A stretch of DNA of 64,000 bases from Chrysomallon squamiferum (taxonomy: Eukaryota; Animalia; Mollusca), in contig CM022678.1 in assembly GCA_012295275.1 (NCBI GenBank), positions 2,108,001 to 2,172,000 on the forward strand. The letters run 5' to 3'. A program made the position numbers and the translations under genes. Below, piece after piece: positions 272-64,000 of the stretch. The notes under the pieces are model-generated. The model was not told the DNA's origin and did no database searches. It worked only from the letters and a program-made list of their open reading frames with translations. Position 1 is the first letter of the stretch, and each line of letters opens with the position of its first letter.

Positions 272-3200
272 GATGTAACTATAACAAATGATGGGGCCAC
301 CATTCTTAAGCTGTTGGAAGTGGACCATCCTGCAGCCAAAGTCCTCGTAGAGCTGGCAGAGCTGCAGGACCAGGAGGTGGGAGATGGAACAACCAGTGTG
401 GTGAGTCGGTTGTAGTTTTTTATTTATTATTAAGTTTTTAATATTTTACATGACACAGAAAAACCTTGCCCAGGATGCGCGCTGCCTTGGAGCAAGCAAC
501 TTACACAGATGTAAGTTTTCTCTTTATTTCACTTCTGCTGTGTGTACTTTCTGAAAAGGATTGTGGTCACACCTGTCTAAAAACATGAGAGATTTCATCA
601 GTTTTCGCTGGGGAGCTGTCGTCACAACTTGGGTAGAATGTAGGATGATTGTTCTGCAGTCAGCCATAGTTTCGTGTACGTTGTGATGGAGTGTGTCAAG
701 GGTGGACTGATATGTGATGTAATGTTTTTTAATTGTTTGATGAGGGGGGGAAAAAAAAAAAAAAAAAAACTTCAACTCTGCTCTTTAGTCTGGTTTCCTA
801 ATGCAGCAACACATGCATTAAAAAGAAGAGAGAAAAAATATCAGGAAATACTTAAGGGAAAAAAAAAAAAAACCATTTGTTTTAAGTGGGAGTTGTTTTA
901 ATTTTTCAAGAATTTTGTTTTGCAGCCAAACTTTTGTTTGCTTGTTAAAGTAATTGCCATATTAGATTCAGTAACTCAAGTCCAAAGGTTTTACCCAAAT
1001 TTGTTACTTTTTCTAATCAGTATTAGTTGTATAGTAAAAGAAATAACATTTCTGTTTTATATTAATTTTTTTTTTTTTACATGTTTATGGTGTTTGAGAG
1101 GAGGAAGTAATTTGTAAATTAAAGTTTGTTACTGATAATACAGTTGTTACAAAGTCCTTGTTGGACATTTTTGTAACTTCTGTGCATGACAGAAGTGTTC
1201 AGTTACTAGGGTAAGAGAATTTAATTTTAGGATTTTTAAGTAGATTTATTGTTGATTCTTAATTTTTAACTTGAAAACAATCATGAAAATTTTAATGTAT
1301 TTCTAGAACATCAGAATCGTATCATGATTTGTATCCATAATTAAACTTTTCTTTATATTTGAAATAAATATTAGTATTTTTTTATACCTTCTTGTGGTGT
1401 ATTTGTTTTGTTCCTACCCATTTGACATGTTGCAGGTTTGAATGCTGTAACATGTAGATACAGTAGGATAAATAAAAACTCAGCAGTGACGTGCTTTTTA
1501 TCTGAAACCAGTTTTCTGCTAATATTCTGTTACTGCACAAGTTGTGTTTTATTTGTGAGTAATTGTTAAGATCTAGCTCTCTGAGTTTAGTCGTAGATAA
1601 AGGCTGGTGTTGTGTGACACAGCAGTGATGGTAAAACTTTATTTTTACTTGAAGATAAAATTCTGAAAATTATACAGTTGTAACTTTCATAAACTTTCAC
1701 TAGTTGGTGGTTTTTTTGTATGTGTGTCTTTCTATTTTCTTTTTACTTTCTTTTTCTTGCTTCCTTTATGCTTCTTGTTAAGTGTCTGTTTAATTTTATA
1801 CCTGTTTTTTCCTCCAACCCACCCTGCATCTTTTTAATGTTTTTATTGTTTATGTAAACCTTCTTGTCTTTGACCCTCATTTCCATCACATTTGGCACAT
1901 AGCTAGTTATCTGTTTGTATGAGAGAAAGAAGAAAAAGCAAGAGAGAGAGAGAGAGAGAGACTGAGATTTTTGATTTTGATTGACCGGTACTAATGCAGT
2001 ATGTGTGGATTTTCAGTATAAAATTCCAGAACTTATTTCTCATTCTTAGATACTTATTATTTAATTGTGTTATATAATTTTTTATCAAATCTATATTTAA
2101 AAAATTTATTTGGTTGAATTAAACTTATTTTTATGCTGTAAATATTTAAAACGAAATATTAGTATTTTTTTATACCTTCTTGTGGTGTATTTGTTTTGTT
2201 CCTACCCATTTGACATGTTGCAGGTTTGATGCTGTAACATGTAGATAAAGTAGGATAAATAAAAACTCAGCAGTGACGTGCTTTTTATCTGAAACCAGTT
2301 TTCTGCTAATATTCTGTTACTGCACATGTTGTGCTTTATTTACGAACAGTTTTAATGTAATGATTTTAAAAAGGATACTGTTTATAAATACTGTTTCTGA
2401 AACATATTTTTTTTAATTATATCCCTGCAAATGTTGTTCTGTTTTTGCTGACTTGTTTTTTATATGATCCTCTTATTTTTATTTTTGTTTGTGCACAATT
2501 ATTTGTATGGATAATTTAATTTTAAAAATGTACTTGTACGTTGTGCAGGAAATATTTATTTAAATTCATACGTATGATTTATTTTAACCTAGTAATATTT
2601 CTATTATTTATGAATAATATTTTTTTGCATAAAAACTACTTTAAATTATGTGTGTTTGTAATAAATTTTGTTTGTTTCAGAAGAAAGCAGTAGCATTTTT
2701 AATTTTGTATAATTTTTTATCACGATCAAGTAGTATTGTAAACGTGTTTAGTACACATAGTTTTTCTTTATTTTGGAGAAATAATCTCTCAAATTGTCTT
2801 GTATTATGTATGATGTTTTTGTTTGTTTTGAACAGGTAATATATTTGAACTGTATTGTTTGTTTTGAACAGGTAATATATTTGAACTGTATTGTATTTTT
2901 TACAGGTAATATATTTGAACTGTATTGTATTTTTTACAGGTAATATATTTGAACTGTATTGTATTTTTACAGGTAATATATTTGAACTGTATTGTATTTT
3001 TTACAGGTAATATATTTGAACTGTATTGTATTTTTACAGGTAATAATAGCAGCTGAGTTGCTAAAGAATGCTGATGAACTGGTGAAATGTAAAATCCACC
3101 CAACGTCAATAATCAGTGGCTACCGTCTCGCCTGCAAGTTAGTTTACTCACTGGTTTAATAGATGTTGTTAAAACCAATGTTTATATACACTTTTTATTA

Positions 3201-6200
3201 TTGATTTATCATCATTTTATTATTTTTATTATTATTTATTAATATTAGGATTTATTTATTTATTATTTGGTTGTTGGCCTGTTTATAGAATGGTTAAAAA
3301 CTACAGAACCAGTTTTTTGTTTTTTTGTAAATAATAATAACAACAACATCATTAAGAATAATAAGAATAATAAATAGTAATAATGATAACAAGTTTTAAA
3401 AAAAAAGTTAAAAATAAGAAAAAAAAAAAAAAAAAAAAGAAGTAATAATAACAACAACAATAAATAATAACAGTGATAAATATTCTGTGTTTTAAATGTT
3501 TGTTTTCAGAGAAAATATTAAATATTACCACACACTAGTATGTAGAAATTATTTAAAAGATGTGTTTGTTTTCAGAGAAACTATTAAATATTACCACACA
3601 CTAGTATGTAGAATGTTTTAAAAGACATGTTTGTTTTCAGAGAAATTATTAAATATTACCACACACTAGTATGTAGAATGTTTTAAAAGACATGTTTGTT
3701 TTCAGGGAGGCAGTGAAGTACATTCAGGACAATTTGACGATTAGTTCAGACGAACTGGGACGAGATTCGATAATCAACGCAGCGAAAACAAGCATGTCCA
3801 GCAAACTGATTGGTCCGTATCCTTGTACTTAGTACTCACTGTCACTCTCAGCTGTCACAAACGAATGAGTGAGTGAGTGAGTGAGTGAATAAGTGAATGA
3901 ATGGATGAAAGTGTGATCAGGTTCCAATACAAAAGAAGGATGATATTTGGTGTAAGTTTTATAAGTAGTTTGTGAAACGTTTAGTCCCCCAAAAACCTGT
4001 AAATAAAACAAACAGAAATGTGGTTTTATCATTAAAGTGTTTCTAGTTGTATCTAGGGGTGAGCAGTGACTGTTTTTCTTTACAGAAGTTGTAGAGTCAA
4101 CCCTCAAGCATTTCTCCATAGTTGTTTTTCCACAGACCGTGTACAGTTCCTCCTGTTTATGGGACGGCACCCACAAATATAAACATCTTCAGGGTTGTTT
4201 TTTTTTTTTTGAAGGAAGATAATAATAATAATTATAAAGCTGTAATTATGACTGAAACTGATTTTATGTAAAGATCTAAACGTAAAAAAGAATTAAAAGA
4301 AAAATATGTTTCCTCAACGATGTTCAGTGATTCTGACTTTTACGCTGCTATGTGCGTTGATGCTGCAAATGCGGTGAAGACGCCAGACGGGAAGGGAGGT
4401 TTCCGGTACCCCTATTAAAGCTGTCAATGTACTGAAGGCTCATGGGAAGAGCTCAAGAGAAAGCACACTGATCCACGGTTACGCTCTCAACTGTACCACC
4501 GCGTCACAAGGTAAGAGTGCTCTCCCTTGACGTTATATTCAAACAAATTTCATTTCTGTTGTGATGTGTAAAATTATTTTGCTTTCATTTTTTTTTTTCA
4601 TTTTGTAGCTATTATGATAATGTGCTTTCTTGTTAGCTGCTGTTTATCATATTGCAATACTTTGAACAGTTTTTTATTTCAAACACAGCTATGTGTAAAT
4701 GTAGATACAGATATAGATACAGGTATATGTACAAGTACAGATATAGATACAGATGTACAGATTGTTGATTTCAAACACTGCTATGTGTGTGTAGATACAG
4801 ATGTACAGATTGTTTCAAACACAGCTATGTGTGTGTAGATAGATATAGATACATGTACAAGTACAGATATATAGATACAGATTCACAGATTGTTTTTTTC
4901 AAACACAGCTATGTGTGTAGATACAGATGTACAGATTGTTGATTTCAAACACAGCTATGTGTGTGTAAACGTAGATACAGATGTACAGATTGTTTATTTC
5001 AAATACAGCTATGTGTGTGTAGATACAGATGTACAGATTGTCAGATTGTTTCAAACACAGCTATGTGTGTGTAGATAGATATAGATACATGTACAAGTAC
5101 AGATGTATAGATACAGATGTACAGATTGTTTTTTTCAAACACAGCTATGCCAAAGAGGATCACACCAGCTAAGTTAGCGTGTCTGGATTTCAGTCTTCAG
5201 AAGACAAAGATGAAACTTGGAGTTGAGCTGCTAGTAGATGACCCAACTCAGTTAGACGCTATGAGACAGCGGTGAGTAGTGCTGGACAGGCAGAAAGTGA
5301 ATTTTGACATTTGATGTTAATAGCAGAAGTTTGATGTTAACAGTAAAAGTTAATAGTAACAGTAACTAGTTTGATGTTAACTGTAATAAGTTTGATGTTA
5401 ACAGTAGCAAGGTTAAGAGTAACAGTAACAAGTTTTATGTGAACTGTAACTAGTCAGACATTGATGTTAGGTATCTTGTGCTAACTGCAAGTGAATACAA
5501 ACAAATAAAATTACTTGTAAATGTACTGAACTAGCTGAGTACTTGCATATTAAAACAAAACAACACCCAGAGATGTATTTCAATATGTTTAATATTCATA
5601 CTGACACCACCAATAAAAATTAAATAAAACAGAAAAATAAAACGAAATACCTGAACTCTAATAAGAAATGAACTGTACTGTGAAGTGTTCTGGTTTCAGG
5701 GAGTATGACATAACGAAGGAGAGGATACAGAAGATTGTGGGGGCGGGGGCTAATGTAATAATGACTACTGGGGGGATTGATGACCTCTGTCTCAAGTACT
5801 TCGTGGAGGCTGGGGTGATGGGAGTTCGTAGATGTAAGAAAGCAGATCTGAAGAGAATTGCCAAGGCAACGGGAGGTAAATATTTTTATGTACATGGTTG
5901 ATGCATGTTTATTATTAGCATTAGTACTACTTTAAATGTCAAATCAAATACTTTATATAATTAGAAGTATATATATATATTCTATTTTAATATATTTACA
6001 AGTTGAAATTTTTGATTTTATACAGTTAAAAAAAAAATACTGAGCATTGGTCAATTACATACATTTTAAATGGCTTTGTATTTGAATTATTATTAATTTC
6101 ATTACGTTATTATTATTCATTTCTGTGTTCTTGTTAAGATTATTTTAATGTAGAGGTTTCAGATTTTTTTAAATAAAAAAAAAATCACATTACAAAATCT

Positions 6201-9161
6201 TAGAAGATTCATCTTATACTGTTTAAATTGAATTTTTATTAGATTTTTATTTTTGTTTTAAATTATCTAAATTATTATTATTTTTTTTTTTTTTCAGCAA
6301 TGTTTCTGATGACGCTGGCTAATCTGGATGGTGAGGAATCGTTTGATTCGTCACAGCTGGGCCACGCCGAGGAGGTTGTTGTAGAGAGAATATGTGACGA
6401 CGAACTGATTCTTATCAAAGCGTAAATAACTCTTGTTCATCAGTTTTACAAATGATTTAAATTTTTATATTTTTTATTCAAAAAGGTTAGGTATCTCTAG
6501 ATGTTAAATTGTTCATGAGATTTTTTTAAAATTTTATTCTTATAAATAAAAATTATTTGATTTATATTCTTCAGTAACATAATAAGTTTTAATATTATTA
6601 TGTCTTCACCCTTTATACTTGGAGAAGAGTTATTAAAGAGAGACAACTCATGTTGATACCACTTCAGCAGTTATCATTTCTAGTGAAATGGTTGTTTTTT
6701 TGTTATTATTAAAGGTAGAAAACTCTTAATATAGATGACAAATGGTTTGAGAGTTACCTGTTCAGATAAATGACTATTGTTATTTTTTATTATTATGATT
6801 ATTATTATTATTATTATTATTTATTATTTATTTGTTGTTGGGTTTTTTTAATGTTTATTTTGTTTATTTTATTTTATATATGATTCCATATAACCATAGG
6901 AAATTAAAAAATAAATATTTTTTTTAATTATTACTATTATTATTATTATTTTTTAACGTTCTAAAATTATTTTCTAAGCTACTTCTCTCTTTTGTACATT
7001 ATTTTTAACAGTTTTTAATGGGTTTTTTCTCTTTTTCTATATTGTCAAAACTTTTTATTTATTTATTTTTGTATTTTTACATATTTATTTTTGTTTGTTT
7101 GTTTGTTGTGATTTTATTTTATTTTATTTTATTTTATTTTCAGACCAAAGGCGAGGTCGGCAGCCTCCATCATTCTGCGCGGCGCCAACGACTTCATGTG
7201 TGATGAGATGGAGCGGTCAGTGCACGACGCGCTGTCGGTGGTCAAGCGAGTCCTGGAGTCAAAGTCCCTGGTGGCCGGTGGCGGTGCTGTAGAAGCTGCT
7301 TTGTCCATCTACCTGGAGAACTTCGCAACGTCGCTGGTAAGATTAGTCGAGAATTTTGTTTTTGTCCATTAATGTTTTGTTTCTGGGAAATATGGTGTGA
7401 AAGGATGTAGAAATTATTTTATTTATATTTTTATTTTTATTTTTATTTTTTTTTATTTTTTTATCTTCAAAAATTCTCTTTTCATTCTGGATCACAAGAT
7501 GGGGGGGTCCAAAGAAAGAGAGAGAGAAAAAAGAAATGTCTGCCTCCCTGCATCCTCACATTCTTCATTATGCTTTATTTTTACTAAGACCGATTGAAAA
7601 ACAATCACATCAGAGAAAGCAGAACAAAATTGTTTCTGTTCTTCGTTTTTTATTGCCCAAAATACATCAGCTTTAAAGTTAAGTTGAGTTTTTTGATAAT
7701 TTTTTTTATATAAACCACATAAAATGCACACCCAGAAATGTTGCATATAGCAACATCATTGCCCATCAATATATGCATTATACAGCCAAACCCATGCATA
7801 CATATTACACATGCAGGTGATTAAAGACACACATACACCCACATTCACACACACACAGACACACAAACACCCACATTCACACACACACAGACACACAAAC
7901 ACCCACATTCACACACACACAGACAGACAGACAGATGAGCAGGACATGCTAGAACTTGTCTGATACATGTCTGTGTGTACAGATGTGTTCATTCTACAGA
8001 TTTAGTTATCTGAGTTTTATCATCCTTCCCACAACTTTGCTGGTAGACCAACACATGGTTTTTATTAGTTATACATGTGGGAGACATCAACACAGCTCAA
8101 CAACAACATCAACTACACTGACATCATTGTCTGTGTGTATGTCAGGCTGTTACAGTTACTGTAGATCTGAAATCTTGCAAACCTGAAATAAAAACATAGC
8201 AGTAGTAGTAGTTATTAATAATCTTATTCTTGTATATTTTCAAAAGGTAGCAGTGGTGATGTGGTGGTGTTAGTAGTAGTTGTTGGTAATATTTATGTTT
8301 GTTAATTTTTAAATAGGTTTCTTCTAAATGACCCCTTGTTTGTTTGTGTTTTAAAACTGCTCCATTCTGCCACAACAAAACTAATCTGCCTCCATTTTAG
8401 TAAGATACTGACATGTGTAGACATTATTATTGTTAAAGTATCTTTAATACTGGGGTGTATTTGTAATGAGAATTTAAAATGGCAAAAATTGAAAATGATT
8501 AAAAAATCATATTATTAAATGTTTGTTTTTATCCTCACTTATCTCCTGTGACTTTGCTGATATCTCACTTGTAGGTATTACTGTGGTTACACACATGAGA
8601 ATTACTGAAAAACAGCTTCACCAGTTTTGTGTTGATATTTTTAATACTGTACACATTTTGCAGAAAACTTGTAACATTACGTACAGTGAGGGAATTGTTT
8701 TTATAAGAAACTGATAATTCTTACGGGTTTAAAGAGTCAGATAATTTTACAAGAATTGTTTATTAATTTTATTTATTGAAATGTAATTACTGCTGCCACT
8801 CTTCAGAAAACATTTTGAATTATAAAAAAAAAAAAAAAAATTATATTTGTACATAAATAACAAAAAGTAACAAGTGTCATACTAAAGATGAAAATAGTAG
8901 TGAAATAGCTGTGCACAAATCATAAATTCATGGGTTTCAGTATAAGGCACGTTTATTTTCATTCTCCACGGTTTTTTCCCATTCCAGGCATCGAGGGAGC
9001 AGCTTGCTATCGCTGAGTTTGCCAAGTCTCTGCTAGTCATTCCCAAGCAGCTTGCTGTCAATGCTGCCCAGGACGCCACGGACCTGGTTGCTAAGTTACG
9101 AGCTTACCACAACACCTCCCAGACCAAGCCAGACCAAGCAAAACTGCGATGGTGAGTAAAA

Positions 9162-9238
<77 letters not shown>

Positions 9239-10166
9239 CTTTCTCCCTCCCTCTCTCTCTCCCTCCCTCCCTCTCTCCCTCCCTCCCTCTTCTCTCTCTC
9301 TTTGACTAAATTTTGCAGCAGTAAAAATGCCTTCTTGGTACAGTTGTTAACACAGAATAGAAATAGCTGGATTAGAATCTTTCTCTTGAAAAAAAAAGTT
9401 GTGTGTTTTATTTGTCAGATACTTTATTATCAACAAAGTTTAATTTCAACGAAAAAATAAAACAGAACAAATCATAGAAAAATAGGTTCTTGTTTTTATT
9501 GGTGTTTTTTTTTTTACTTATTTATTTAAAATCTCTATTTCTCCTCTGTCTTTCTTTTTTTTTAAAGTTTTAAATGGTGATTTCTTGGGCTTTTTTTTCT
9601 AATCACAGTGTAGGTTTATATTTATATGAGGATTTTTTTTTTTTTTTTTAATGTATTTAAAATATCTATTTCTCCTCAGTTTAAAAAATGATTTATTTAT
9701 TTTTAATTTTTTTTTTTTATCCATTCACAGGGTAGGTTTAGATTTATATAAAGATTTTTATTTTAATGATTTGTTTTTTTATTTTTTTTTTTTTTTTTTT
9801 CCTTTCACAGGGTAGGTTTAGATTTATACAAAGATTTTTTTTTTTTTTTAATGAATTATTTTTTTTTTTATTTTTTTTTTTCCAATCACAGGGTAGGTTT
9901 AGATTTATACAAAGATTTTTATTTTATTTTAATGAATTTTATATTTTTCCATTCACAGGGTAGGTTTAGATTTGTACGAAGGTGTTGTGCGTGACAACAA
10001 GAAGTGTGGAGTACTGGAGCCGACCATTTCGAAGATCAAATCACTGAAGTTTGCCACAGAGGCAGCCATCACCATCCTGCGAATTGACGACATGATCAAA
10101 CTTTCACCCGAAGAGAAAAACAAATCTTACGGGGAAGCTATGAGAGACGGAGATCTTTGTGAATGA
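272..10166 (+). CDS. TCP1: T-complex protein 1 subunit alpha (CCT1 chaperonin), 5' exons outside window
   Basis: Exons 272-400, 3040-3137, 3706-3816, 4328-4510, 5145-5271, 5700-5875, 6298-6421, 7144-7336, 8988-9151, 9959-10166 have AG/GT boundaries. They translate to [13 protein letters not shown]...[18 protein letters not shown]...[15 protein letters not shown]...[25 protein letters not shown]. One extra C at 4409-4412 breaks the frame in exon 4328-4510. Confidence 0.97.
1411..1542 (+). ncRNA. intronic box H/ACA snoRNA candidate, copy 1
   Basis: 132 nt. Hairpin 1 has TCCTAC/GTAGGA and ACATGTTGCAG/CTGTAACATGT with an internal pocket. H box AAATAA at 1470-1475 lies 14 nt below the upper stem. 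Hairpin 2 has GCAGTGAC/GTTACTGC, with ACA at 1537-1539. Vertebrate TCP1 introns host H/ACA snoRNAs. Confidence 0.72.
2199..2329 (+). ncRNA. intronic box H/ACA snoRNA candidate, copy 2
   Basis: Near-identical duplicate of 1411-1542 (duplicated block ~1365-1553 / 2154-2341), with ACA at 2324-2326. Confidence 0.7.
2818..3044 (+). repeat. ~34-bp tandem array of the TCP1 acceptor junction (7 x CAG|GTAAT)
   Basis: CAGGTAAT at 2833, 2869, 2903, 2937, 2970, 3003 and 3037; the last is the true acceptor. Confidence 0.95.
3497..3705 (+). repeat. ~65-bp tandem array of a TCP1 acceptor (4 x TGTTTGTTTTCAG)
   Basis: Unit TGTTTGTTTTCAG-AGAAA.TATTAAATATTACCACACACTAGTATGTAGAA; the last copy is the acceptor of exon 3706. 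Confidence 0.9.
3817..4327 (+). other. U12-type (minor spliceosome) GT-AG intron
   Basis: 5' site GTATCCTT at 3817; branch-point-like TTCCTCAAC at 4310-4318, close to the AG at 4326-4327; no polypyrimidine tract. Confidence 0.88.
4677..5149 (+). repeat. tandem array of TCP1 acceptor plus first exon bases (~8 x TTTCAAACACAG|CTATG)
   Basis: Copies are separated by GTAGATACAGATGTACAGATTG-type spacers; the last copy continues as exon 5145 (AMPKR). Confidence 0.92.
9604..9980 (+). repeat. array of the TCP1 last-exon acceptor plus ~20 exon nt (5 x CACAG|GGTAGGTTTAGATTT)
   Basis: Copies near 9604 (diverged), 9726, 9806, 9887 and 9954 (real). Confidence 0.9.
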
Positions 10167-46380: not shown

Positions 46381-46411
<31 letters not shown>

Positions 46412-46452: not shown

Positions 46453-46511
<59 letters not shown>

Positions 46512-47294: not shown

Positions 47295-47332
<38 letters not shown>

Positions 47333-49749: not shown

Positions 49750-49793
<44 letters not shown>

Positions 49794-49948: not shown

Positions 49949-49988
<40 letters not shown>

Positions 49989-52900
49989 ACAAACAAATAA
50001 AAAAAGGTAATAATAATTATTAGTTTAAAAATAAATACTGTAAGGTTATGACTGTAAATGGAATGAAATTATTAACAACAGACAGCATCAAAGATTAAAA
50101 GCATTAAAACTGTGTATCAAAAATAAAATAAAAATAAAAATGTAAAAATAATAACAAAAGATATTAAAAAAAATTAAAAGGATTAAAAAATTTAAAATAA
50201 ATATTGTAAATGAAGACAGTAAATGAAATTATTAACAGTAGTTATCGTCAGTGTGTTTCTGTTATAACAGTAGGATTACAAAGAGTTGTCTACCTTTCCC
50301 AATGATTTCTAGGAGTATTTTCTCGTACTGTCGCTGGGACAGGCCTGTGGGCAGGTTGCCGAGATACAGGGAAATACTCGGCCCGTGTGGGTCTTCCTTC
50401 TGTTGAAGGTAAAACCTGGTCATCCGATTCTGCCGCAAAGATTCCTAAAATACAGCAACATTATAAATAAATAAATAAATAACACATTTTTATTTAATTA
50501 CATATATTATTACAAACAATGACATTTATTTCTTAAAAATTAAAGACATTAGCAAATTATTTTAAGATACTTTCCTATTCAAAAGGGGCCAATCTTTTCT
50601 TAAGTGTGATAATAAAAAAACAACTATATTTTATCGTGACAAAGATTGTCACGACAACCTCACACTTTTTTTATTTCAATGTTATACCTTATTATTATGA
50701 ACTTGTTAACACAAGATCCTCACAAAATTACTATTTCTGTCATATTTTTTAATGTTAACAATGGCTGATCATCAGTGACTAGACACTATTGTTATTGCAG
50801 TCATACTTTATTATCATCAAAGAATGCTCATCAATAAATATATAAAACACTGGATGTATACAGATGAGATTCGTAAATATTATCACTTCTACTTTTATTT
50901 AGAACAGTTCTGCTACTGTACAACAGAATTAAGATAATTAAAGAAAAGAACTAACATTTAAAAGAACTGATTAACATATTAATGAACTAATTAGCATATT
51001 AATTAAACAGCTGATTGACGTACTTTTCTGCTCTGCTGTATCAGTTCCCAGGGTTTCTCATCGTGAGCTAAAGTTCTCTCTGTGACACCTCGGTCCAACA
51101 ACACCTCAACCAGGTCAAAGTTGTCTGTGTATGCCTCCTGTAACAAACAAACAAACAAATAAATAAACAAACAAACAAACAAACAAACAAACAACACCTC
51201 AACCAGATCAAAGTTGTCTGTGTATGCCTCCTGTAACAAACAAACAAACAAATAAACAAACAAACAACACCTCTACCAGATCAAAGTTGTCTGTGTATGC
51301 CTCCTGTAACAAACAAACACACAAATAAACAAACAAATATATAAACAAACAAATAAACAAACAAACAAATAAACAAACAAATATATAAACAAACAAACAA
51401 CACCTCTACCAGATCAAAGTTGTCTGTGTATGCCTCCTGTAACAAACAAACACACAAATAAACAAACAAATATATAAACAAACAAATAAACAAACAAACA
51501 AATAAACAAACAAATATATAAACAAACAAACAACACCTCTACCAGGTCAAAGTTGTCTGTGTATGCCTCCTGTAACAAAACAAACACACAAATAAACAAA
51601 CAAAAACATATAAACAAACAAATAAACAAACAAACAAATAAACAAAAAACAAACAAATATATAAACAAACAAACAACACCTCTACCAGATCAAAGTTGTC
51701 TGTGTATGCCTCCTGTAACAAACAAACACACAAATAAACAAACAAATAAACAAACAAACAAACAACACCTCTACCAGATCAAAGTTGTCTGTGTATGCCT
51801 CCTGTAACAAACAAACAAACAAATAAACAAACAAACAACACCTCTACCAGATCAAAGTTGTCTGTGTATGCCTCCTGTAACAAACAAACACACAAATAAA
51901 CAAACAAATATATAAACAAACAAACAACACCTCTACCAGATAAAAGTTGTCTGTGTATGCCTCCTGTAACAAACAAACACACAAATAAACAAACACACAA
52001 ATAAACAAACAAACAACACCTCTACCAGATCAAAGTTGTCTGTGTATGCCTCCTGTAACAAACAAACAAACAAATAAACAAACAAACAACACCTCTACCA
52101 GATCAAAGTTGTCTGTGTATGCCTCCTGTAACAAACAAACACACAAATAAACAAACAAATATATAAACAAACAAACAACACCTCTACCAGGTCAAAGTTG
52201 TCTGTGTACACCTCCTGTAACAAACAAACACACAAATAAACAAACAAATATATAAACAAACAAACAACACCTCTACCAGGTCAAAGTTGTCTGTGTATGC
52301 CTCCTGTAACAAACAAACACACAAATAAACAAACAAATATATAAACAAACAAACAACACCTCTACCAGGTCAAAGTTGTCTGTGTACACCTCCTGTAACA
52401 AACAAACAAATAAATAAACAAATAAATAAACAAACAAATAAACAAACAAACAAACAACACCTCTACCAGGTCAAAGTTGTCTGTGTACACCTCCTGTAAC
52501 AAACAAACAAATAAATAAACAAATAAATAAACAAACAAATAAACAAACAAACAAACAACACCTCAACCAGGTCAAAAACATCTTTATATGCTTCATGTTT
52601 TAAATAAATAAACAAACAAACAAGGTGATTAGGAGCTTCACCTCTAATCCAAACTTGCGTGACGCCTTTTTGATGACTTCCTCTGCAGTCATGTCGCGAT
52701 GCACTGCGATGTTTTTGTAACCACTTGGAGTTGACTGATTGAAGATACTGAAAGAAAACCGGAGAGTCAAACAAGGGGAGACAACACATTTCAGCCTTTA
52801 ACCATCTCTCATTTGACATACATAACTTTAAGTTAATGTAATCATTTTATGGTAAATAACAAATTTTTGTAAATCCAGAATTTTCTTTTAAACTAAATAA

Positions 52901-55900
52901 TAAAGGTTGTTTCTTTTTCATCTGATTAAATTTAACATTCACTCTGAAATAAAACAGCGGAATTTGCAGTATTTATATATACATCAATTAAATACCTACA
53001 ATTTAGTCAGATATTTTTACCTGTAATTAAGGGTACAATTTACTGATTATTATATTATGGGTATAATTTACTTGTATCTCAAATCTCCAAGGTTCAATTT
53101 GCTGACAATTGTGGATAAAACTTAAATGCATCGCAAGCCCCCCATGTACACTTTGATACAATTAAGGGTTCAACATACCTCCATCATTCCGAACTCCAGG
53201 TACAATTAACTTACAGTTAAGGGATACAACATACCTGTATCTCAAGCCCCCAGGGTACACTTTGATGTATCCTCTGTCTGGATTCTTTTCTCTGTACCGC
53301 AGAAATATGGACGGCCTCTTTCCATCAGGTGTTTTCAGTTGTGATCTTATCGGACTCGTCTCCTCCAGCTCTCTCTCACCTGTGTGAAAACAATCAACTC
53401 GTTTAACCACCTGAAACACCTTGCACTCCTTTCAGTTAACTCTTTTAACCACCTGAAACACCTTGCACTCCTTTCAGTCAACACTTTAGTCTCTGAGACT
53501 CAGTTTTATACACAGCCAGGCCTGTACAAACCAATGCTCAAAGAACGAGGTTTATTGCACATGGTGTGTTCAGTGTATGATATACTGTTTTTTGTAATAA
53601 TTTAATATTGTCTTAAAGATATAAATCTATTTGTGTAAATTTTAAAAACAAAGGTCTGAATCCAAAGGGTCAAGGTTAAGTCAATTAAAAACTGACTTAA
53701 TGAATTGTTGTTTAAGATTGTGTTAATTTAAAAAAAAGAAAAAAAAAAAAAGAGTTAGTATCCAAAAGGGTAAACCAACTAACATAAAAACATAGTAACA
53801 GCAGTCTCGCACAGTAAGAGTAGTAAACCAACTAACATAAAAACATAGTAACAGCAGTCTCGCACAGTAAGAGTAGTAAACCAACTAACATAAAAACATA
53901 GTAACAGCAGTCTCGCACAGTAAGAGAAGAGTAGTAAACCGACTAACATAAAAACATAGTAACAGCAGTCTCGCACAGTAAGAGTAGTAAACCGACTAAC
54001 ATAAAAACATAATGACAGCAGTCTCAAGACAGTAAAACATAGTAACAGCAGTCTCATAGTAACAGTAAGTCTCAAGAGTAAGAGAAGAGTAAAAACCAAC
54101 TAACATAAAAACATAGTGACAGCAACATAAAAACATAGTAACAGCAGTCTCAAGACAGTAAGAGTAGTAAACCAAAAACTAACATAAAAACATAGTGACA
54201 GCAGTCTCATAAAACATAGTAACAGACAGTAAGAGAAGAGTAGTAAACCAACTAACATAAAAACATAGTAACAGCAGTCTTGAAGAGTAGTAAACCTGAC
54301 AACATAAAAACATAGTAACAGCAGTCTAAGAGAACATAAAAACATAGTAACAGCAGTCTCAAACTAACATAAAAACATAGTAACAGCAGTCTCAAACACA
54401 GTAAAAACATAGAGAAGAGAGTAAACCTAACTAAAAACATAACATAAAAAAACATAAAAACATAGTAACAGCAGTCTCAACACAGTAAGAGAAAAGAGTA
54501 GTAAAACCGACTAACATAAAAACATAGTAACAGCAGTCTCAAGCAGTAAGAGAAGAGTAGTAAACTAACAACATAAAAACATAGTAACAGCAGTCTCAAG
54601 AGAAGAGTAGTAAACCGAGAACATAAAAACATAGTAAACCACTAACATAAAAAAAACATAGTAACAGCAGTCTCGCACAGTAAGAGAAAGAGTAGTAAAC
54701 TAACATAAAAACATAGTAACAGCAGTCTCGCACAGTAAGAGAAGAGTAGTAAACCGACTAACATAAAAACATAGTAACAGCAGTCTCGCACAGTAAGAGA
54801 AGAGTAGTAAACCGACTAACATAAAAACATAGTAACAGCAGTCTCGCACAGTAAGAAGTAAACTAACCATAGTAACAGCAGTCTCAAGACAGTAAGAGAA
54901 GAGTAGTAAACATAAAATAAAAACATAGTAACAGCAGTCTCAAGACAGTAAGAGAAAAGTAAAAACCGACTAACATAAAAACATAGTAACAGCAGTCTTG
55001 CACAGTAAGAGAAAAGAAGTAGTAAACCATAAAAACATACTAACATAAAAAACTAACATAAAAACATAGTAATAGCAGTCTTGCAGCAGTCTAACATAAC
55101 ATAAAAACATAGTAACAGCAGTCTCAAGAGTAAGAGAAGAGTAAAACCGACTAACATAAAAACATAGTAACAGCAGTCTCAAGACAGTAAGAGAAGAGTA
55201 GTAAATCGACTAACATAAAAACATAGTAACAGCAGTCTTGCACAGTAAGAGAAAAGTAGTAAACTAACATAAAAACATACTAACAGCAGTCTCGCACAGT
55301 AAGAGAAAAGTAGTAAACCGACTAACATAAAAACATACCACCATCGGAGGCCTCAGCCACATAGTAATTCTTGGGGTCGTCCGATATGTGGAATGTTTTC
55401 AGAGCTGCCTCCTGTAAAACAAACAAAATAAACAATGGAACTTTAAAATATGTCAAGATCAACACATTGATAACATGTTGTTTTTGTTTTAATTTTTTTT
55501 TTTCAATGTAGTCAGACAAAGTATTGTTAGTTTGATTATACAATGTATACAAATCTTAATAAAAGATTAATTTCTGCATTTTCTGTAGCAAGCACTAGCT
55601 TCATATTTTTTTTATCAATCATTATTTTTATCTCTTTATCAGTCACTATTTTCATTTCTTTTTCTGTAAGTAATCACTTTTAAAACTGTATTTTGTTGCA
55701 TATTTCTCAAATGACTCTTATACCTGTTCTATATTGATTTCCAAACATTTCAATAACACTGCACAAATGCAAAAATTTGTCTTTCTACCCATTCAGAAAT
55801 GTATTATGATGATTCCTGCCATGACAAATATAACTTTAATGTAACTTTTAACTTTTATTCCATTTGTTATTAAACTGATTTTATTATTTATTTAGTTTTA

Positions 55901-58776
55901 TTATTTTGTATTTATTCGTATTATTTTATTTCATTTTATTTTTTTTAAATTTCAACATTTCTGCAGTTTTCAATGATGGTGTATGTTGTTAAAAGTTTTG
56001 CATCACATTCTGGGCCTGAATTAAAAAAAAGAAAAAAAAAAAAAAAAAAAAAATTAAAAAATCACAAAATCAAAATGCAGAAGACCTCATATTCTATAAG
56101 AAACAATCAAGCAAACAGACAGACAACTGTTTTTACCAGAATAGTTTGAGCTGCAGCATTTCTTGGGACTGATATTGTGCGATACAATCGCCTTCTGAGA
56201 GAAGCGTTTCCATCAAACACCCGAATAATCTCCACTGAAAACAAGTTTCATATCGTTATTTCACATTAATATAAAAATTCTTCTTGATTATCTAATTATC
56301 TCCACTGGGAAACAGTTTTAATATTTTTATCTGTATTCTACATTAACAGACAGTGAGACGCTACTGCTGATTACCTCCAATAAAAATAAAAATTTAATTT
56401 TAAATATTATTTCAAATTAATGCACTCTCATCTGTTATCACCAATCTTGTTATCTTTGAAGAAAATATAAACACATCATTTTTATTATTATTTTGAATTA
56501 ACAGACACTTGAACATCTCTGATTACCTAATTATTCAAATGGTGATGAATGCATTATTTTTATTAGTACTTCAATTTAATATCTACTCAGTTCTTACTGG
56601 AAACCTCATTATATTCAAATGAAAATAAATTCATTATTTTTACTGTTATTTTTAAATTCACGCAAACTCATTTACTGCTGTTTACCTAGTTACAAATTCT
56701 GTACACTATGCTTACTTATTATCTTGTTTACTCCAAGTTAAGAATAATTACAGAGAAAAATCTTTCAATGTGAAATTAATTTAATAAGTTATCCTTTACA
56801 ACAAGAACCAAAACATCGCAGATTGGAATAAAAGTGGAAATGTAAGAGAGAGAATATAGAACTGTAAGAATGTGTCAGAGAAATAGGGGAGGTAAGCCAG
56901 AGAAGCAAAGGGAGGCAACTGACTGTCAGTGTCCTTGTCCTTGTCTTTCCCCTCTTTGTCTCGCGGAGATCGTCTCTCTTTCTCCTCATCGTCATTCTTC
57001 GAGTCTCCACTTGATGACCACTCCTCAGAAACAGTGCGAGCTGAAAACAAACAACAAACTTTATACTGTAAACAAACAACATGTTAACTTTATACTGTAA
57101 ACAAACAACATGTTAACTTTATACTGAAAACAAACAACATGTTAACTTTATACTGAAAACAAACAACATGTTAACTTTATACTGTAAACAAACAACATGT
57201 TAACTTTATACAAAACAACATGTTAAACAAACAACATTTTTATACTGAAAACAAACAACATGTTAACTTTATACAGCAAACAACATGTTAACTTTATACA
57301 ACAAACAACATGTTAACTTTATACTGAAAACAATCTGTTAATTATAAACTGTAAACAATATGTTAATTATAAACTGTAAACAATCTGTTAATTATAAACT
57401 GCAATCTGTTAATTATAAACTGTAAACAATCTGTTAATTATAAACTGTAAACAATTTGTTAATTTTTAAACTATAAACAAACAATTTTTAAACTGTAAAC
57501 AATTTGTTAAACTGTAAACAATTTGTAAATTTTTTAACTGTAAACAAACAATTTGTTAATTTTATTTAAACTGTAAACAAACAATTTGTTAATTTTAAAC
57601 TGTAAACAAACAATTTGTTAAATTTTAAAATGTAAACAAACAGTTAGTTAGGCAAGCATGGAACAAACCCAGTCTGAACATAACACCCATACACAAATAT
57701 TTTTTATCCCCTTTTTCTAGATATTTAAATATACAAGCATATAAACATTTATTTGAATACAATACAGAAAACTACTAGGAAAAAAATATATAAAAAAATA
57801 GCATTCAATAGCATGCATCATTTAACCTTAATATATATATATATTTTTTTTAAATTTTAGTTTTTAATAACTGAATGCACTCACCTGGTATATCTGTGGA
57901 ATTGACAAGAAAATGGTCAGATGGAAGCACAGATGAATGAAGAAGTAAAAAAAAGAAAAAGAAGAAAAAATATGTTAATTATATAATTTAATATGCATTC
58001 GGAATGAAATAATGAAAAGAAAGACAGAGAGAGAGAGAGACAAAGAACACACCCCATGTAAAGTCCTATGTCAAAAACATTTTCAACAGAAAGTTTTAAT
58101 TTTTAAGATTTAAAATTTGTTTTTCATTGTTAAAAATGTTGAGAAGATTATAAACATTAATAAAGTTATATCAACTGTTTGTTATATAAATACTGATTAT
58201 TTTATATAATATATTAATATATATATATTTTATATATATAGCAAAATCAACTAATTCAGATCTATTTTTAACTTATATAGATAATGAAACATGTAAATAA
58301 ATAATACATATACTCCTTATTAATTTTATAGTTATATTCTAGAGGTGGTCCTTTACATGACAAATTGTACATAACATTAACAGAAACTTGTTATATTTTG
58401 TTAACATACACATTCACAATCTAGAGGTGTCCTTTATATGGGGTTTATGAATACACAATAAACACAAAAGACAGAGAACAATAACAACTGTAAATGCTCG
58501 TTAATAATATATGCTTTCTAGAGGTGTCCTTTATATGGGGTTTATAATAAATAATTAAGATAATAAAAGAGAAAAAAAAAAAGAAAACAAATGAGAGCAG
58601 CCCAAGCAAATTAATCAGCACATTAGTGAGACACTGCAAAAATTTAAATTTTTTTTTTATTTTTATTATAATTTAATGTATTATGTCAGACCTGCCCTGA
58701 TCATACTCTGAAAATAACAATAATAATAATAACAATAATAAATAATAATAATAGTAATAATAATAATAGTAACAAC

Positions 58777-58835
<59 letters not shown>

Positions 58836-58855
58836 CAATAATAATAATAATAATA

Positions 58856-58886
<31 letters not shown>

Positions 58887-58893
58887 TAGTAAC

Positions 58894-58946
<53 letters not shown>

Positions 58947-58963
58947 TAATAATAATAATAATG

Positions 58964-59006
<43 letters not shown>

Positions 59007-60262
59007 TGATGATAAAAGTAACAATAACAATAAGTATAATGATAATAATAATAAAAATAAATAAATAAATAAATACATAAATAAAATAGAGTATATAAAA
59101 ATGTCAATTTGTTGTTGATAAAACAAATTTGAAAACTAAATGGATAAAAATAAGAAAAAACTTAACTAAAGTTTAATAAAAATAGTAATAATAATAACAT
59201 ACTAGCAGTAACAATAACAAAAGTAATAGTAGTTAAAGATATTATTAATAACAATAAAAATTCAGATTAATTTTAAAATAATGTTTGCTGTAACCTGATA
59301 ATTATTATTATTATTTTTTGTTTTCAAAATTTCCCCACCCAGATTTATTTTTCTAATTCTATAAAACATTTCTTTCATTTAAAGATTTTTAAAGTTAAAA
59401 AGAAAGCAAAGAAGAAAGAAGAAATACAACTTATTATAATACAATACCTACCCATTCTTAATTTCGAGGATTTAAAAAAAAAAAAAAAAAAAAAAAATCC
59501 AACCAGCATTAATATGGTGGGTTTAAAATAATAATAATAATAATAATAATAAAAGTAAAAAAATAAAAATAAATGCCTGCTTATGTACCCAGTTAATTTG
59601 GTGGGTTTGTTTAAAAAATGAAATGCCTACCTATCTAACCCACTGTTAATTTGGTGGGTTTGTTTAAAAAATGAAATGCCTACCTATCTAACCCACTGTT
59701 TATTTGGTGGGTTTGTTTAAAAAATGAAATGCCTACCTATCTTACCCACTGTTTATTTGGTGGGTTTGTTTAAAAAATGAAATGCCTACCTATCTAACCC
59801 ACTGTTTATTTGGTGGGTTTGTTTAAAAAATGAAATGCCTACCTATCTTACCCACTGTTTATTTGGTGGGTTTGTTTAAAAAATGAAATGCCTACCTATC
59901 TTACCCACTGTTAATTTGGTGGGTTGTTTAAAAAATGAAATGCCTACCTATCCACCCACTGTTAATTTGGTGGGTTGTTTAAAAAATGAAATGCCTACCT
60001 ATCCACCCACTGTTAATTTGGTGGGCCAGGTTACAGCAAACCAATATATTTTTAAAAGATGGCCTAGCTGGGAAGTTCTGTGATGACCACTCATGTGACA
60101 GAATGTTAGATGGATGGACAGAAGGGTAGTTGTTGGAAGACAAACGACCTTGAACTTGAAATTCAGAATTAGGTATATCTGAAAAACAAATGTCACCTTT
60201 TTCCAAGTATTTTATTCAATGTTTTTTTTTGTTATTGTTGTTGTTGTTGTTATTGTTAATGC

Positions 60263-60299
<37 letters not shown>

Positions 60300-60469
60300 G
60301 TTACTTCTACATATTTTATATGTAAATTTTTATGTATTTATTCTTCTTTATTTGTCAGACTTTTTATCATTATGATTACTGTTTCCTAAATATGCACACA
60401 TATAAAACAGAATTTTCTGACCAATTGCTTATTTCTGCATTTATTTAATTTCCATATCACAACAACAAA

Positions 60470-60505
<36 letters not shown>

Positions 60506-61489
60506 CTATTTGAATTTTCAAATAAAAATTAAAATTACAAAATATAAACTTTTTAATATCAATTTTTTTCCCTTCAATTTATTTATTTATTAATTTAATT
60601 TATTTATTTATTGCATTCAACAATAGCTACTAAAAATAATCATGCTGGTTAAATTTTCAAAACAAAAATTGAAATAAACAAGATAACTGTTTTTAATCTA
60701 TGCTAATAGGCACCCAAGCACGCTTGTTATGGACATGTTATTAAAAAGCATGGGAAAATGTCAAGTAGTAAATCAGTGAAAGAGCTGGTGTTGTGTAATA
60801 ATATTAAATAATTCTTTGTTACTGACTGAACCAAGGTTTGATCCTAGTATCTATGAATTAGGAAGGAATGGGAGATAACTGAGGAAAGAAGTATTAGAAG
60901 CTGTAAGCTGTTTTTATATTAACTGTAGTTTAATTCTGAAAGTTGAGAAAAGAAACTAGTTGTAAGCTGTCTTTATATTAACTGTAGTTTAATTCTGAAA
61001 GTTGAGAAAAGAAACTAGTTGTAAGCTGTTTTTATATTAACTGTAGTTTAATTCTGAAAGTTGAGAAAAGAAACTAGCTGTAAGCTGTTTTTATATTAAC
61101 TGTAGTTTAATTCTGAAAGTTGAGAAAAGAAACTAGCTGTAAGCTGTCTTTATATTAACTGTAGTTTAATTCTGAAAGTTGAGAAAAGAAACTAGTTATT
61201 ACTGACACACAGTTAAAATCTGATAAAACTGATTATCAGCAGTGAATCCTTTGTGTGCACTTTTGTCAAAGACAGGTCAGTACATACCAGAACCTTTCTT
61301 AACCAGTACCCCAACAAAACAAATAAATATATAAAAGTAATAAAAAACAACAAATAATAATAATATAAATAAATAAATAAATAATAATAGTATAAAATAA
61401 TAAATTATTTAATTTTTGAAATTACTTTTTTTTTTTATATTTCTAAATAGTTCTTAAATATCTGTTAACTTATTCTAGAATCAATAAAT

Positions 61490-61533
<44 letters not shown>

Positions 61534-63723
61534 CAGAGAGAGTAACAGAGAGATAGAAACAGAGAAAAAGAGAGAGAGAGATAGAGAAATTAAACAGAGA
61601 GGTTTCAAATAACTTTTTTATTTTTTTTATTTACACTGACTGGTTTAAAGGAAGATGATGGGATAATAATGTTCCTGTCTGAAGCCCTGTGTAACTACTG
61701 TGAAAGTGTAACGAGCTGTTTTGATGAGTTATTTGAGTTTTATGTAACATACTCACTCTAATGAGCACCTATCTGTTGTTCAGGTCATGTAAACTGATGA
61801 AAAACTCAAGAATGACAAGGTTAGTTAGCAAATGAAACAAAAGCCAGAAAGAATCTTTCCAGTGACATTCAAATTATATCTGACATAATTTAAATATGTC
61901 ATTGATACCGGTGAATACTTATTTATATTGTTCATTCGTCTTTGTGACTGAATGTAAATAAATAAAATAAATAAATAAATAAATATATAAAAAACAATAA
62001 AATAAATGAATGAATGAAGAATAATAAATTAAAATAATAATAACAGTAATGATGACAATTATAATGACAATAATAATAATAACCATAATAATAATAATAA
62101 TATAACAATAATAAAAATTTAAAATAATAATAGTAGTAATAAATTAAAATAATAATAATAATAATAATAATAATTATAACAAAATGAAAAAAAAAAAAAA
62201 AAAATAACAGAATTATAATAATTATTTAAACTGAGGAAGAGTAATCAGTTTGTTTTTGTTTTGTTGTTTCCTCAGTAATTTTAAAAATTCAAAAACATTT
62301 TATTATTAATTTGTCTTGTGAAAATGTATAAAAAATTTTTTAAACAAGTTCTTTTAATTTTCTTTGTCACCAATTTATCATTCTCTTATAACTGTTAATA
62401 TTACTTTTCTTTCATTTTCAGTTAAATAAAATAAAATTTTACATTTTAACAAAAAACAGAAATTACTGAATTTAACATTACTGACTGCTGAATATTTTTG
62501 TTTTTTTTAAATAAAATTTTGAAGGTCACTGGGAAGGGGGGGAATCTAAACATCGTGAAAGCATCCATACTGGTTTTCCTACTTAGTCCAAGAATAGTCT
62601 CCACGGGAACATCCATTCTGGGAACCGTGAGGCAGCTGGGGGGCAGCATGATGTCACGCAGACTGCCGAACTTGCACTCCACCGGCAGGCTTCGGTAACA
62701 CTGAGCATGTGCCTGCAACAAATGTAAAATTGCAATTTGTAATTGTAACGGAATGTGATTTGAAAAAAAAAAATTTAAAAAAAAGATTATTTGAGTTTAT
62801 TTTGTTTTTGTTTCAGTTCATTATTTTTACTTTACTTTACATATTTACTTTTCTTGTTATTTAGTTTTTAATTTTCGTTTTAATTTGTTTTACCTTGTTA
62901 TTTATTTTACATTATTTTATTTGTTTTATTTATTGATTTTGTTCATTTTCTTTACTTTTTCCAAATAGGCAATAGAAAGAGCAACCATTGTTACTTTGTT
63001 GTCTTTAAGACCACTCCCAAACACTGCATAATGTGACTTGAAAAACCAACATTCATTTTACAGTAATACAAATAGTTTTATTATTATTTCTAGAAAGATT
63101 TTGCATATTTTGGGTGATTTCACATTTGGATTTATAGAACAAAAGAATGAATAATAATAAGAAAAGGGGAGGGGGGAGAGGGAGAGGGAGAGAGAGAGAA
63201 CAGGAGGTGTATGGAAGAAAGGAAAAGGCCTCCCTACAGTGGAGACTAGTAAAGGAAGGACAAATGAATGCATGAAAATGTGACAGTAAGGAGTCTAGAA
63301 AGACAAAAACAGTAGAAAAGAAGATATGAAGAGTTAGATAGAAACGTGGTCTGTGTGACTAGATTTGTCAGGGGGGGTCACTCACCGTCACTCCGCACCA
63401 TTCACATCTCATTCCTGCGAGACACTCGGACGACCAGCAGGTTTTCTTACACGACACACACTTAGAGTTGGGGGGCAGGTTACCCTCGCGCCAGTGGTGA
63501 TAGTGAACAACAGATGCCTGCAACAGTAGCAGTAGTAGCAATAGCAGCAATAGTAGTAATAATAATAATAGTAATAATAATAATAATAATAATAAATAAT
63601 AACAGTAATAGTAATAATAATAGTAATAATAGTAATAATAATAATGTGTGTATACAGATGTTTGTTAAATTCAATGAAGGAAATGGAGACTAACATCATC
63701 TCTCTAGGGTTGGTTGGTTGGTC

Positions 63724-63761
<38 letters not shown>

Positions 63762-63876
63762 AATTAACAAAAGAACTACAGACTAACCTTGTCTCTCTGG
63801 GGCTGGTAGGTAGCACACTCTTTACAGTCACTGACCACAAAATCCTGACACTCCAGATGTGCATAATATTCACAAA
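44285..63876 (-). CDS. DGKQ: diacylglycerol kinase theta (C1, RA, RRM-like, DAGK catalytic and accessory domains), 5' end outside window
   Basis: Exons 63876-63788, 63517-63386, 62712-~62571, (60178-59999), (57893-57885), 57040-56924, 56234-56137, 55411-55339, 53379-53235, 52747-52642, 51137-51024, 50444-50294, 49612-49455, 48816-48665, 48431-48283, 47686-47579, ~46266/46184-46042, 47137-46934, 45580-45415, 44720-44622, 44407-44285. Motifs: [69 protein letters not shown]. Confidence 0.95.
46185..46740 (-). repeat. 6 copies of DGK acceptor plus exon start (ACAG|ATTACACAACAAGGGTGTATATATAAAAATG) separated by (TTTA)n
   Basis: Each copy encodes [11 protein letters not shown], the conserved DGK accessory-domain start. 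Confidence 0.93.
47936..48282 (-). repeat. 42-bp array (~8 copies) abutting a DGK donor
   Basis: Unit GTTTGTAATGTCCAGTCTTT[GA]ACTTCCACATGTCATCATTGT, starting at AG|GTCAGTTTGTAATG. Confidence 0.92.
51138..52620 (-). repeat. ~15 copies of DGK acceptor plus first ~39 exon nt ([13 protein letters not shown]) separated by (TTTG)n
   Basis: Unit TTTGTTACAG|GAGGCATACACAGACAACTTTGA[CT]CTGGT[AT]GAGGTGTTG; it fills nearly the whole intron. Confidence 0.96.
53770..55338 (-). repeat. ~55-60-bp minisatellite (>25 copies) starting at a DGK donor
   Basis: The real donor is G|GTATGTTTTTATGTTAGT; repeat units read CTATGTTTTTATGTTAGT...GAGACTGCTGTTA. Confidence 0.93.
57041..57640 (-). repeat. 25-30-bp arrays of a DGK acceptor (GTTGTTTGTTT[TA]CAG)
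   Basis: Units TATAAAGTTAACATGTTGTTTGTTTTCAG and AACAGATTGTTTACAGTTTATAATT; the last copy is the acceptor of exon 57040. Confidence 0.9.
57885..57893 (-). CDS. candidate 9-nt microexon of DGK theta (ATATACCAG)
   Basis: Long pyrimidine tract, TGC and CTGAC upstream, CCACAG acceptor, GTGAGT donor; phase 1-1 and compatible with exon 57040. Confidence 0.6.
59500..60027 (-). repeat. 53-bp array (8 plus degenerate copies) of exon end plus donor
   Basis: Unit CCCACCAAAT[TA]AACAGTGGGT..GATAG|GTAGGCATTTCATTTTT. Confidence 0.93.
59999..60178 (-). CDS. candidate 180-nt in-frame cassette exon of DGK theta
   Basis: TTTTTCAG|ATATACCT...GGATAG|GTAGGC; open, phase 1-1 ([13 protein letters not shown]...HQINSGWI). 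Confidence 0.55.
   Translation of the reverse strand: MYLILNFKFKVVCLPTTTLLSIHLTFCHMSGHHRTSQLGHLLKIYWFAVTWPTKLTVGG
60899..61197. repeat. ~60-bp minisatellite (5 copies)
   Basis: Unit AGCTGTAAGCTGTTTTTATATTAACTGTAGTTTAATTCTGAAAGTTGAGAAAAGAAACT. Confidence 0.92.
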
Positions 63877-64000
63877 CTGTAAAATAAAACATGATATTCA
63901 CAAACTGTAAAATAAAACATGATATTCACCAACTGTAAAATAAAACATGATATTCACAAACTGTAAAATAAAACATAATATTCACCAACTGTATAATAAA
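63862..64000 (-). repeat. 28-bp array (5 or more copies) of DGK acceptor plus ~15 exon nt
   Basis: Unit TTTTATTTTACAG|TT[TG]GTGAATATCATG versus the real TTTTATTTTACAG|TTTGTGAATATTATGCAC. Confidence 0.92.

Follow-up and report, generated by a model that had tools for sequence, protein, structure and literature searches.

Why are the tandem repeats in the introns of an animal gene so often built from the splice site beside them? This question is raised by a 64,000-nucleotide (nt) stretch of the genome of the gastropod Chrysomallon squamiferum (GCA_012295275.1, contig CM022678.1, positions 2,108,001 to 2,172,000 of the forward strand; hereafter, the window), which holds three neighbouring genes encoding TCP1 (CCT-alpha), an SLC30A2-like zinc transporter (ZnT) and diacylglycerol kinase theta (DGK). 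The first-pass annotation of this DNA had proposed that about 20 exon-intron boundaries were copied into tandem decoy arrays. The neighbouring intron was indeed found to contain a local copy at 19 of the 75 splice sites, about a quarter (nine donors and ten acceptors), but units carrying the junction together with 5-41 nt of exon were found at only 13 of these sites, and at four (19245, 53235, 56234 and 63788) a single extra copy, diverged in three of the four, was present rather than an array. Our findings indicate that the arrays most likely represent a known kind of repeat, of the type called mirages in lancelets and also seen in intron 7 of human F7, which occurs here at high density and with statistically significant enrichment in a new animal group, and which is most likely neutral.

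Enrichment of repeats at exon edges

The splice sites were taken from gene models comprising 39 exons and 75 splice sites, all GT/AG and in frame, in the three genes; this set takes in one candidate 20-nt ZnT exon and one putative donor in the 3' untranslated region of DGK at 44280. An exon-blind scan, in which 20-mers matching at 18 of 20 positions within 300 nt were collected with low-complexity sequence excluded, detected 33 repeats in the window, 31 of them inside the three genes. Twelve of the genic repeats contained a splice site, 14 lay within 2 nt of one and 17 within 15 nt. The null model reduced each array to a single founding unit, which was placed at random, and discarded any placement lying wholly in an exon. 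The excess over random placement anticipated by the first-pass annotation was present within the window, as 14 of 31 repeats lay no more than 2 nt from a splice site, about three times the expected 4.8 (P 6.5e-5). P ranged from 2e-3 to 2e-8 when three backgrounds were combined with three distance cut-offs, and under the harshest background, from which all other tandem repeats were removed, 12 of 31 repeats contained a splice site against 5.1 expected (P 2e-3).

The earlier statement that the minisatellites were mostly built from the local splice site held for repeats of at least three copies (13 of 18 at a junction) but not for the repeats as a whole (14 of 31 within 2 nt). Among those with fewer than three copies, 1 of 13 was at a junction, which is the chance level at the strict threshold (1.5-2.4 expected), and the two classes differed in a post hoc comparison (Fisher P 7e-4). 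The confinement of the excess to arrays of at least three copies points to the expansion or persistence step and gives a hint that the excess at exon edges arises as arrays expand rather than at their birth.

Growth of the arrays from spare copies

In nine of the ten arrays examined, the decoys shared variants that were absent from the real site, some of them arising from homopolymer shifts. Such bases were common to 30 of 31 decoys at 19391, 13 of 14 at 51137, 24 of 27 at 55339, 9 of 10 at 44280 and 4 of 4 at 9959, and at 55339 the change common to the decoys removes the GT. These shared variants suggest that a single duplication founded each array and that later units were copied from earlier ones, not repeatedly from the live junction. 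Because each array unit has its own sequence, every array appears to have arisen independently in place, in agreement with the earlier proposal. The breakpoints were spread between a few nt on the intron side and 41 nt on the exon side of the junction, and donors and acceptors were both affected, which argues against a fixed splicing-defined breakpoint; the unit end lay no more than about 6 nt from the junction at 8 of the 19 sites, exactly at the junction in three.

Two general causes were tried and rejected. Slippage at the microsatellite/exon boundary, proposed in the first-pass annotation, predicts microsatellites near the arrays, and a microsatellite or homopolymer within 60 nt was found at 5 of 19 array sites against 11 of 56 others (P 0.53); microsatellite overlap plausibly made the units at 19391 and 51137, where the exon stubs end in tract-matching bases. 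Recursive splicing through AG|GT ratchets, the other idea raised there, fared no better, as an exon-initial GT was present at 1 of the 10 acceptor arrays and at 2 of the 28 other acceptors. The exon ended in AG at 7 of 9 donor arrays against 10 of 28 other donors (P 0.052), a borderline value that we did not use as support.

Splice-site use and presence of the decoys in reads

Read evidence was drawn from assembled contigs of four of the 11 listed runs, covering TCP1 only: X2 and X4, short-read DNA from two studies, and X8 and X9, RNA from one study. The RNA contigs (X8, X9) joined exons at 3040, at 3706 (joint 3137>3706) and at 5145, and at 9959 one X8 contig resumed at 9958 right after exactly 164 letters of the preceding exon. 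The exon-attached acceptor was thus used at four of four TCP1 arrays at the level of contigs, in which rare forms are hidden. The first-pass assertion that the functional copy is always the one attached to the exon body stood at these four arrays; it was unreadable at 46266, where the attached copy has no acceptor. Of the 83-92 acceptor decoys, 33 were tested for the effect of their use on translation, which would be a frameshift or an added stop for 31 of them.

DNA contigs of X2 and X4 contained decoy units at 2836, 4689 and 9892, and one X4 contig covered the last decoy together with the exon at 9959. The occurrence of decoys in short-read DNA from two studies argues against assembly stutter for three TCP1 arrays, and this evidence concerns the presence of decoys rather than their copy number, as no listed DNA contig spans a whole array. 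One X4 contig skipped a 66-nt unit at 3496, an appearance that short-read collapse would also give. The listed differences between X4 and the window were mostly intronic.

Genes and array anatomy

The window is AT-rich animal DNA, 36% of which is tandem repeat. TCP1 (272..10165, plus strand, 10 exons in the window) was delimited by its gene model, translations and RNA joints; ZnT (15293..27050, minus strand, nine exons including the candidate 20-nt exon) and DGK (44280..63876, minus strand, 20 exons in the window) were delimited by gene models and tblastn. The coding edges were supported by tblastn with gastropod DGK-theta and ZnT2 proteins and, for TCP1, by the RNA joints. The best named protein matches came from the gastropod Gigantopelta aegis, with most coding exons 66-100% identical and two lower. 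Introns range from hundreds of bases to 4 kb (median 670 nt), and GC content at the junctions is 0.47 on the exon side versus 0.31 on the intron side.

The four TCP1 arrays are all at acceptors. At 3040 (2818..3047), a 34-bp unit forms six decoys, each with AG|GT and 6 exon nt; at 3706 (3493..3709), a 65-bp unit ending at the AG forms three decoys without exon stub; at 5145 (4670..5151), a unit of about 50 bp with 5 exon nt is present in seven copies, six of which have AG; and at 9959 (9520..9981), an 81-bp unit with 15-23 exon nt forms four decoys. On the minus strand, ZnT has one 92-bp copy with 20 exon nt at donor 19245 (19143..19265) and a 16-27-bp unit abutting donor 23544 (23235..23546; aligned GT in 0 of 10 copies). 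The largest ladder of the window lies at ZnT acceptor 19391 (19351..22854), where 31 decoy acceptors, each composed of AG, a 38-nt exon stub and (TATG)n, extend over 3.5 kb of intron; a donor-like GTATGT follows most of the stubs, forming a pseudo-exon with the AG.

The remaining sites belong to DGK, also on the minus strand. Its acceptor arrays comprise 46266 (46222..46690; exon stub of up to 31 nt plus (TATT)n, five further copies), 51137 (51094..52577; 14 decoys of 41 exon nt and (TTTG)n, with a decayed distal copy), 57040 (57041..57645; 25-30-bp unit ending at the AG without exon stub, with 9 to 18 decoy AG depending on strictness) and 63876 (63861..64000; 28-bp unit with 15 exon nt, running past the window end), whereas acceptor 56234 (56224..56325) has a single diverged copy. 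Repeats at its donors were found at the putative site 44280 (43467..44291; 77-bp unit, AG|GT just past the stop codon, GT in 10 of 10), at 46934 (46758..46933; 52-bp unit from intron position +1, two copies, no exon stub), at 48283 (47943..48282; 42-bp unit abutting the donor, GT in 0 of 8), at 55339 (53768..55340; unit of about 56 bp, GT in 2 of 26, mostly C at +1) and at 59999 (59588..60027; 53-bp unit with 27 exon nt, GT in 7 of 8), the exon of which was matched by the tblastn protein P0002. Single diverged copies lie at donors 53235 (53134..53266, found at scan threshold 17) and 63788 (63675..63811). At 46266 the copy next to the exon body lacks an acceptor in the assembly, and exon 46042-46266 has a broken start and is out of frame relative to its orthologues; a consensus error is likely there because other exons have single-base indels.

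Unit lengths ranged from 16 to about 100 bp. Exon stubs were found at 3040, 5145, 9959, 19245, 19391, 44280, 46266, 51137, 53235, 56234, 59999, 63788 and 63876, while at 3706, 57040 and 46934 the unit stops exactly at the intron end. The copies at the other three sites, all donors (23544, 48283 and 55339), mostly lack an aligned GT and so are not decoy donors, which removes three of the nine donor sites from those listed as decoys in the first-pass annotation. Site 44280 is a putative donor only. About 107-116 copies retain AG or GT (83-92 acceptor and 24 donor copies), and at strict matching the AG was retained in 83 of 84 acceptor decoys. The AG was kept in nearly all copies at ten of ten acceptor sites versus the GT being mostly lost at three of nine donor sites; the donor-side loss may reflect selection against rival donors, with counts too small for a test.

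DGK-theta loci of other animals

We scanned a redundant set of 80 metagenome DGK-theta loci, 64 of which contained at least two exon blocks. Because of this redundancy and because arrays collapse in short-read assemblies, the metagenome counts speak only to presence. Among the 64 loci, arrays were present at a block edge in three, at least 49 nt away in ten and absent from 51. The three edge-array loci were L012, L017 and L019, two of which share an assembly prefix. Three junctions without arrays in the window carry them in L019 (L019:78-746, 995-1231 and 1714-2186). In L012 (419-933, 1051-1436) and L017 (234-558), a 286-bp duplicate lies at one exon or a 27-28-bp array follows it, and the acceptor of this exon is also repeated in the window with unrelated units.

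Comparison with known systems

The first-pass annotation knew of no description of such arrays, yet related repeats have been reported before. Tandem copies of exon-intron borders have been named mirages in the lancelet (Branchiostoma) genes for Adh3, the globins BflGb6 and BflGb9, troponin C and PGBD5; they involve both 5' and 3' borders, many copies keep AG or GT, the mRNA is normal, the decoys are unused and the mechanism is called unclear (PMC3087553; PMC3902484). Concerted evolution within the mirage cluster, with the edges excluded, is also described (PMC3087553). The window arrays resemble mirages in that their units span the exon-intron border (13 of 19 with an exon stub, three more with the terminal dinucleotide), affect both border types (nine donors, ten acceptors) and are of similar size (16 to about 100 bp, against about 10-160 bp for mirages). 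Further likenesses are that the authentic site is used in mRNA at the four TCP1 arrays and that the working site is excluded from the variants the decoys share. Mirage traits also include allelic copy-number polymorphism and, for Adh3, somatic instability. Unlike mirages, the window arrays come from a gastropod rather than a cephalochordate, occur at 19 of 75 sites with up to 31 decoys at one site, include microsatellite sequence in some units, and show an enrichment measured against a null.

The 37-bp tandem repeat in intron 7 of human F7 is the other described case: its first unit spans the border, the identical pseudo-sites are functional but silent, and 5'-to-3' selection takes the first of several identical functional donors (PMC1557585). 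The site attached to the exon is used in F7 as it is at the four TCP1 arrays; unlike F7, which is a single donor locus, the window has acceptors in over half of its cases. Intron gain by tandem duplication is said to proceed by expansion across a splice boundary, creating new introns. Minisatellite expansion across splice boundaries of human segmental-duplication genes has been described as yielding new introns or isoforms (PMC2812944). In contrast to both, the window's coding blocks follow those of gastropod orthologues and the DGK 3' intron positions match those of other animals, and no extra coding intron was found in the window by either comparison. Recursive splicing uses AG|GT ratchet points, and the units at 3040 and 44280 are AG|GT repeats of that form; unlike recursive sites, the acceptor arrays of the window show no over-representation of AG|GT, the introns are at most 4 kb, not tens of kb, and the assembled RNA contigs showed no splicing intermediate. 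Our literature search, from which most subscription papers were out of reach, brought up neither an earlier report from a mollusc nor a genome-wide test of enrichment.

Origin of the arrays and rival explanations

The explanation we prefer, at a probability of roughly 0.6, is that the arrays are mirage-type minisatellites in which new units were copied from existing ones, likely by slippage or unequal exchange, and that they are likely neutral, given that splicing in the RNA contigs still takes place at the site next to the complete exon. The process would begin when DNA that reaches an exon edge is duplicated in place and the extra copies come to lie in the intron, which is the arrangement observed. 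Expansion would then proceed from a spare copy rather than by fresh copying of the working site, a course to which the shared variants point. Splicing would continue to use the exon-attached site, as the TCP1 contigs indicated at four acceptors, probably through exon definition and, for donors, through 5'-to-3' scanning as in F7. Scanning in that direction would favour the far acceptor copy, so exon definition is likelier at acceptors, where only the last copy has the whole exon and its donor. Experiments by Reed and Maniatis in 1986, in which duplicated sites were combined with truncated exons, reportedly point to exon definition. Rare slips to decoys would be cleared by nonsense-mediated decay.

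Why expansion should favour exon edges is a separate matter, to which we give a somewhat less than even chance of the following answer: tracts of recombination or repair would start within the exon, which is conserved and richer in GC, and would become misaligned at the point in the intron where identity between alleles drops, and the exon would likely also shield that end of the array from deletion. Most human minisatellites are said to mutate by interallelic processes, and this, together with the GC step from 0.47 to 0.31 and the mostly intronic X4 differences, favours such an answer. The unrelated units at DGK-theta exon edges in L012, L017 and L019 support the preferred explanation as a whole. 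Several observations weigh against it. A near-to-far divergence gradient was significant in only one of nine computable arrays (44280). The split by copy number was made post hoc, some members of its two-copy class are AT-rich matches that arose by chance, and it omits four diverged junction duplicates (46934, 53235, 56234 and 63788), the counting of which would weaken the contrast. The RNA evidence comes from two runs of one study, in contigs that drop rare isoforms, and for TCP1 only. Finally, the unit ends within about 6 nt of the junction at 8 of 19 sites are sharper than diffuse recombination suggests, which keeps splicing-coupled damage alive as a cause.

Such damage, raised in part by the first-pass annotation, in which R-loops, polymerase pausing or spliced-RNA-guided repair cause breaks or template switches at splice junctions and thereby seed duplications, is the strongest of the rivals, although we regard it as unlikely. 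It would account for the enrichment at junctions and for the eight sharp unit ends, three of them exact, and the setting in three intron-rich genes, of which TCP1 is spliced in RNA, would suit it. It would also predict that two-copy duplications, presumably the birth stage, are enriched, whereas their count was at chance (1 of 13 versus 1.5-2.4, strict threshold); the arrays grew from variant decoys rather than from the working junction, and since the units contain intron sequence, spliced RNA cannot have been their template. A survival filter alone, by which duplications arise at any place, those in exons are eliminated, free arrays in introns are deleted or decay sooner and the ones at junctions persist longest, seems still less probable. 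The intron interiors are full of microsatellites and of indels relative to X4, in keeping with a window that is 36% tandem repeat, and old decayed copies persist at array ends (51137, 48283), as a filter would allow. The null already includes the purging of exonic duplications, however, and P values of 2e-3 to 2e-4 remain with all tandem-repeat sequence out of the background, while the faster loss of free arrays is an assumption. The first-pass suggestion that junction-spanning duplications survive simply because they are spliced out cannot by itself account for an excess over purely intronic duplications, which are spliced out too, and the null allows for this.

That the arrays are functional, as recursive-splicing ratchets, decay-tuning pseudo-exons or intron gains under way, appears improbable. 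The AG|GT units at 3040 and 44280, the 38-nt pseudo-exon with AG and GTATGT in most ZnT copies and the near-perfect retention of AG by acceptor decoys (83 of 84, strict) would fit a function, but exon-start GT is not enriched at acceptor arrays (1 of 10 against 2 of 28 elsewhere), the introns are short, GT is lost in three donor arrays, arrays of other animals lie at different junctions or have different units, and the decoys of lancelets and F7 are reported unused. Assembly stutter, in which the consensus step multiplied exon edges, is very improbable. Indel errors in at least two exons, the broken exon 46042-46266, the indel-ridden array 53768-55340 and the X4 contig without one 66-nt unit at 3496 could be read as its signature; against this stand the TCP1 decoys in short-read contigs from two studies, the point variants common to copies and the same anatomy in unrelated metagenome contigs.

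Other features of the window

Candidate micro-exons were noted at 24102-24121 (20 nt, ZnT, restoring the frame) and 57886-57894 (9 nt, DGK). Consensus errors are likely in the coding exons at 4328-4510, which has one extra base and shows a gap in the RNA contigs, and at 47579-47686, which lacks one base. The TCP1 intron at 3817-4327, the ends of which are joined in RNA contigs, has a U12-type donor (GTATCCTT) and a branch-site-like motif near its acceptor. Within one TCP1 intron, a nearly identical, non-tandem duplicate of about 215 nt (about 1339-1554 and 2117-2341) was suspected to contain a small nucleolar RNA, as vertebrate TCP1 genes are hosts of such RNAs, a suspicion not backed by an Rfam search of the duplicate, which gave no match.

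Two GC-rich, two-exon gene candidates of similar layout lie on the plus strand at 30429-31770 and 32770-34213, outside our annotation and counts, and their introns contain no junction arrays. Multi-copy minisatellites away from known splice sites were seen at 90-232, 5310-5450, 16265-16732 and 12261-12484, the first of which lies 40 nt upstream of an acceptor and repeats a branch-point-like motif. The unit of a mid-intron 59-bp array at 60902-61197 resembles a strong acceptor, with its pyrimidine tract and AG, when read in the sense of DGK, and no open exon was found downstream of the array.

Significance

What the window adds is the measured excess of repeats at exon edges, with the hint that it arises at expansion rather than at birth. 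The arrays also raise the questions of how the spliceosome picks one among up to 32 near-identical acceptors and whether exon-intron structure shapes where DNA mutates. On the practical side, arrays of this kind disrupt exons in consensus sequences built from long reads, as probably at 46042-46266, and can lead gene prediction astray. It is possible, although we hold it doubtful, that a mutational process acting in several lineages of invertebrates enlarges tandem repeats at exon edges in particular, through recombination started in conserved exons or splicing-coupled damage. If so, about a quarter of splice sites would receive decoy ladders from this process, which would also be a main path of intron growth and a constant supply of new introns and pseudo-exons, with mirages as its visible trace.

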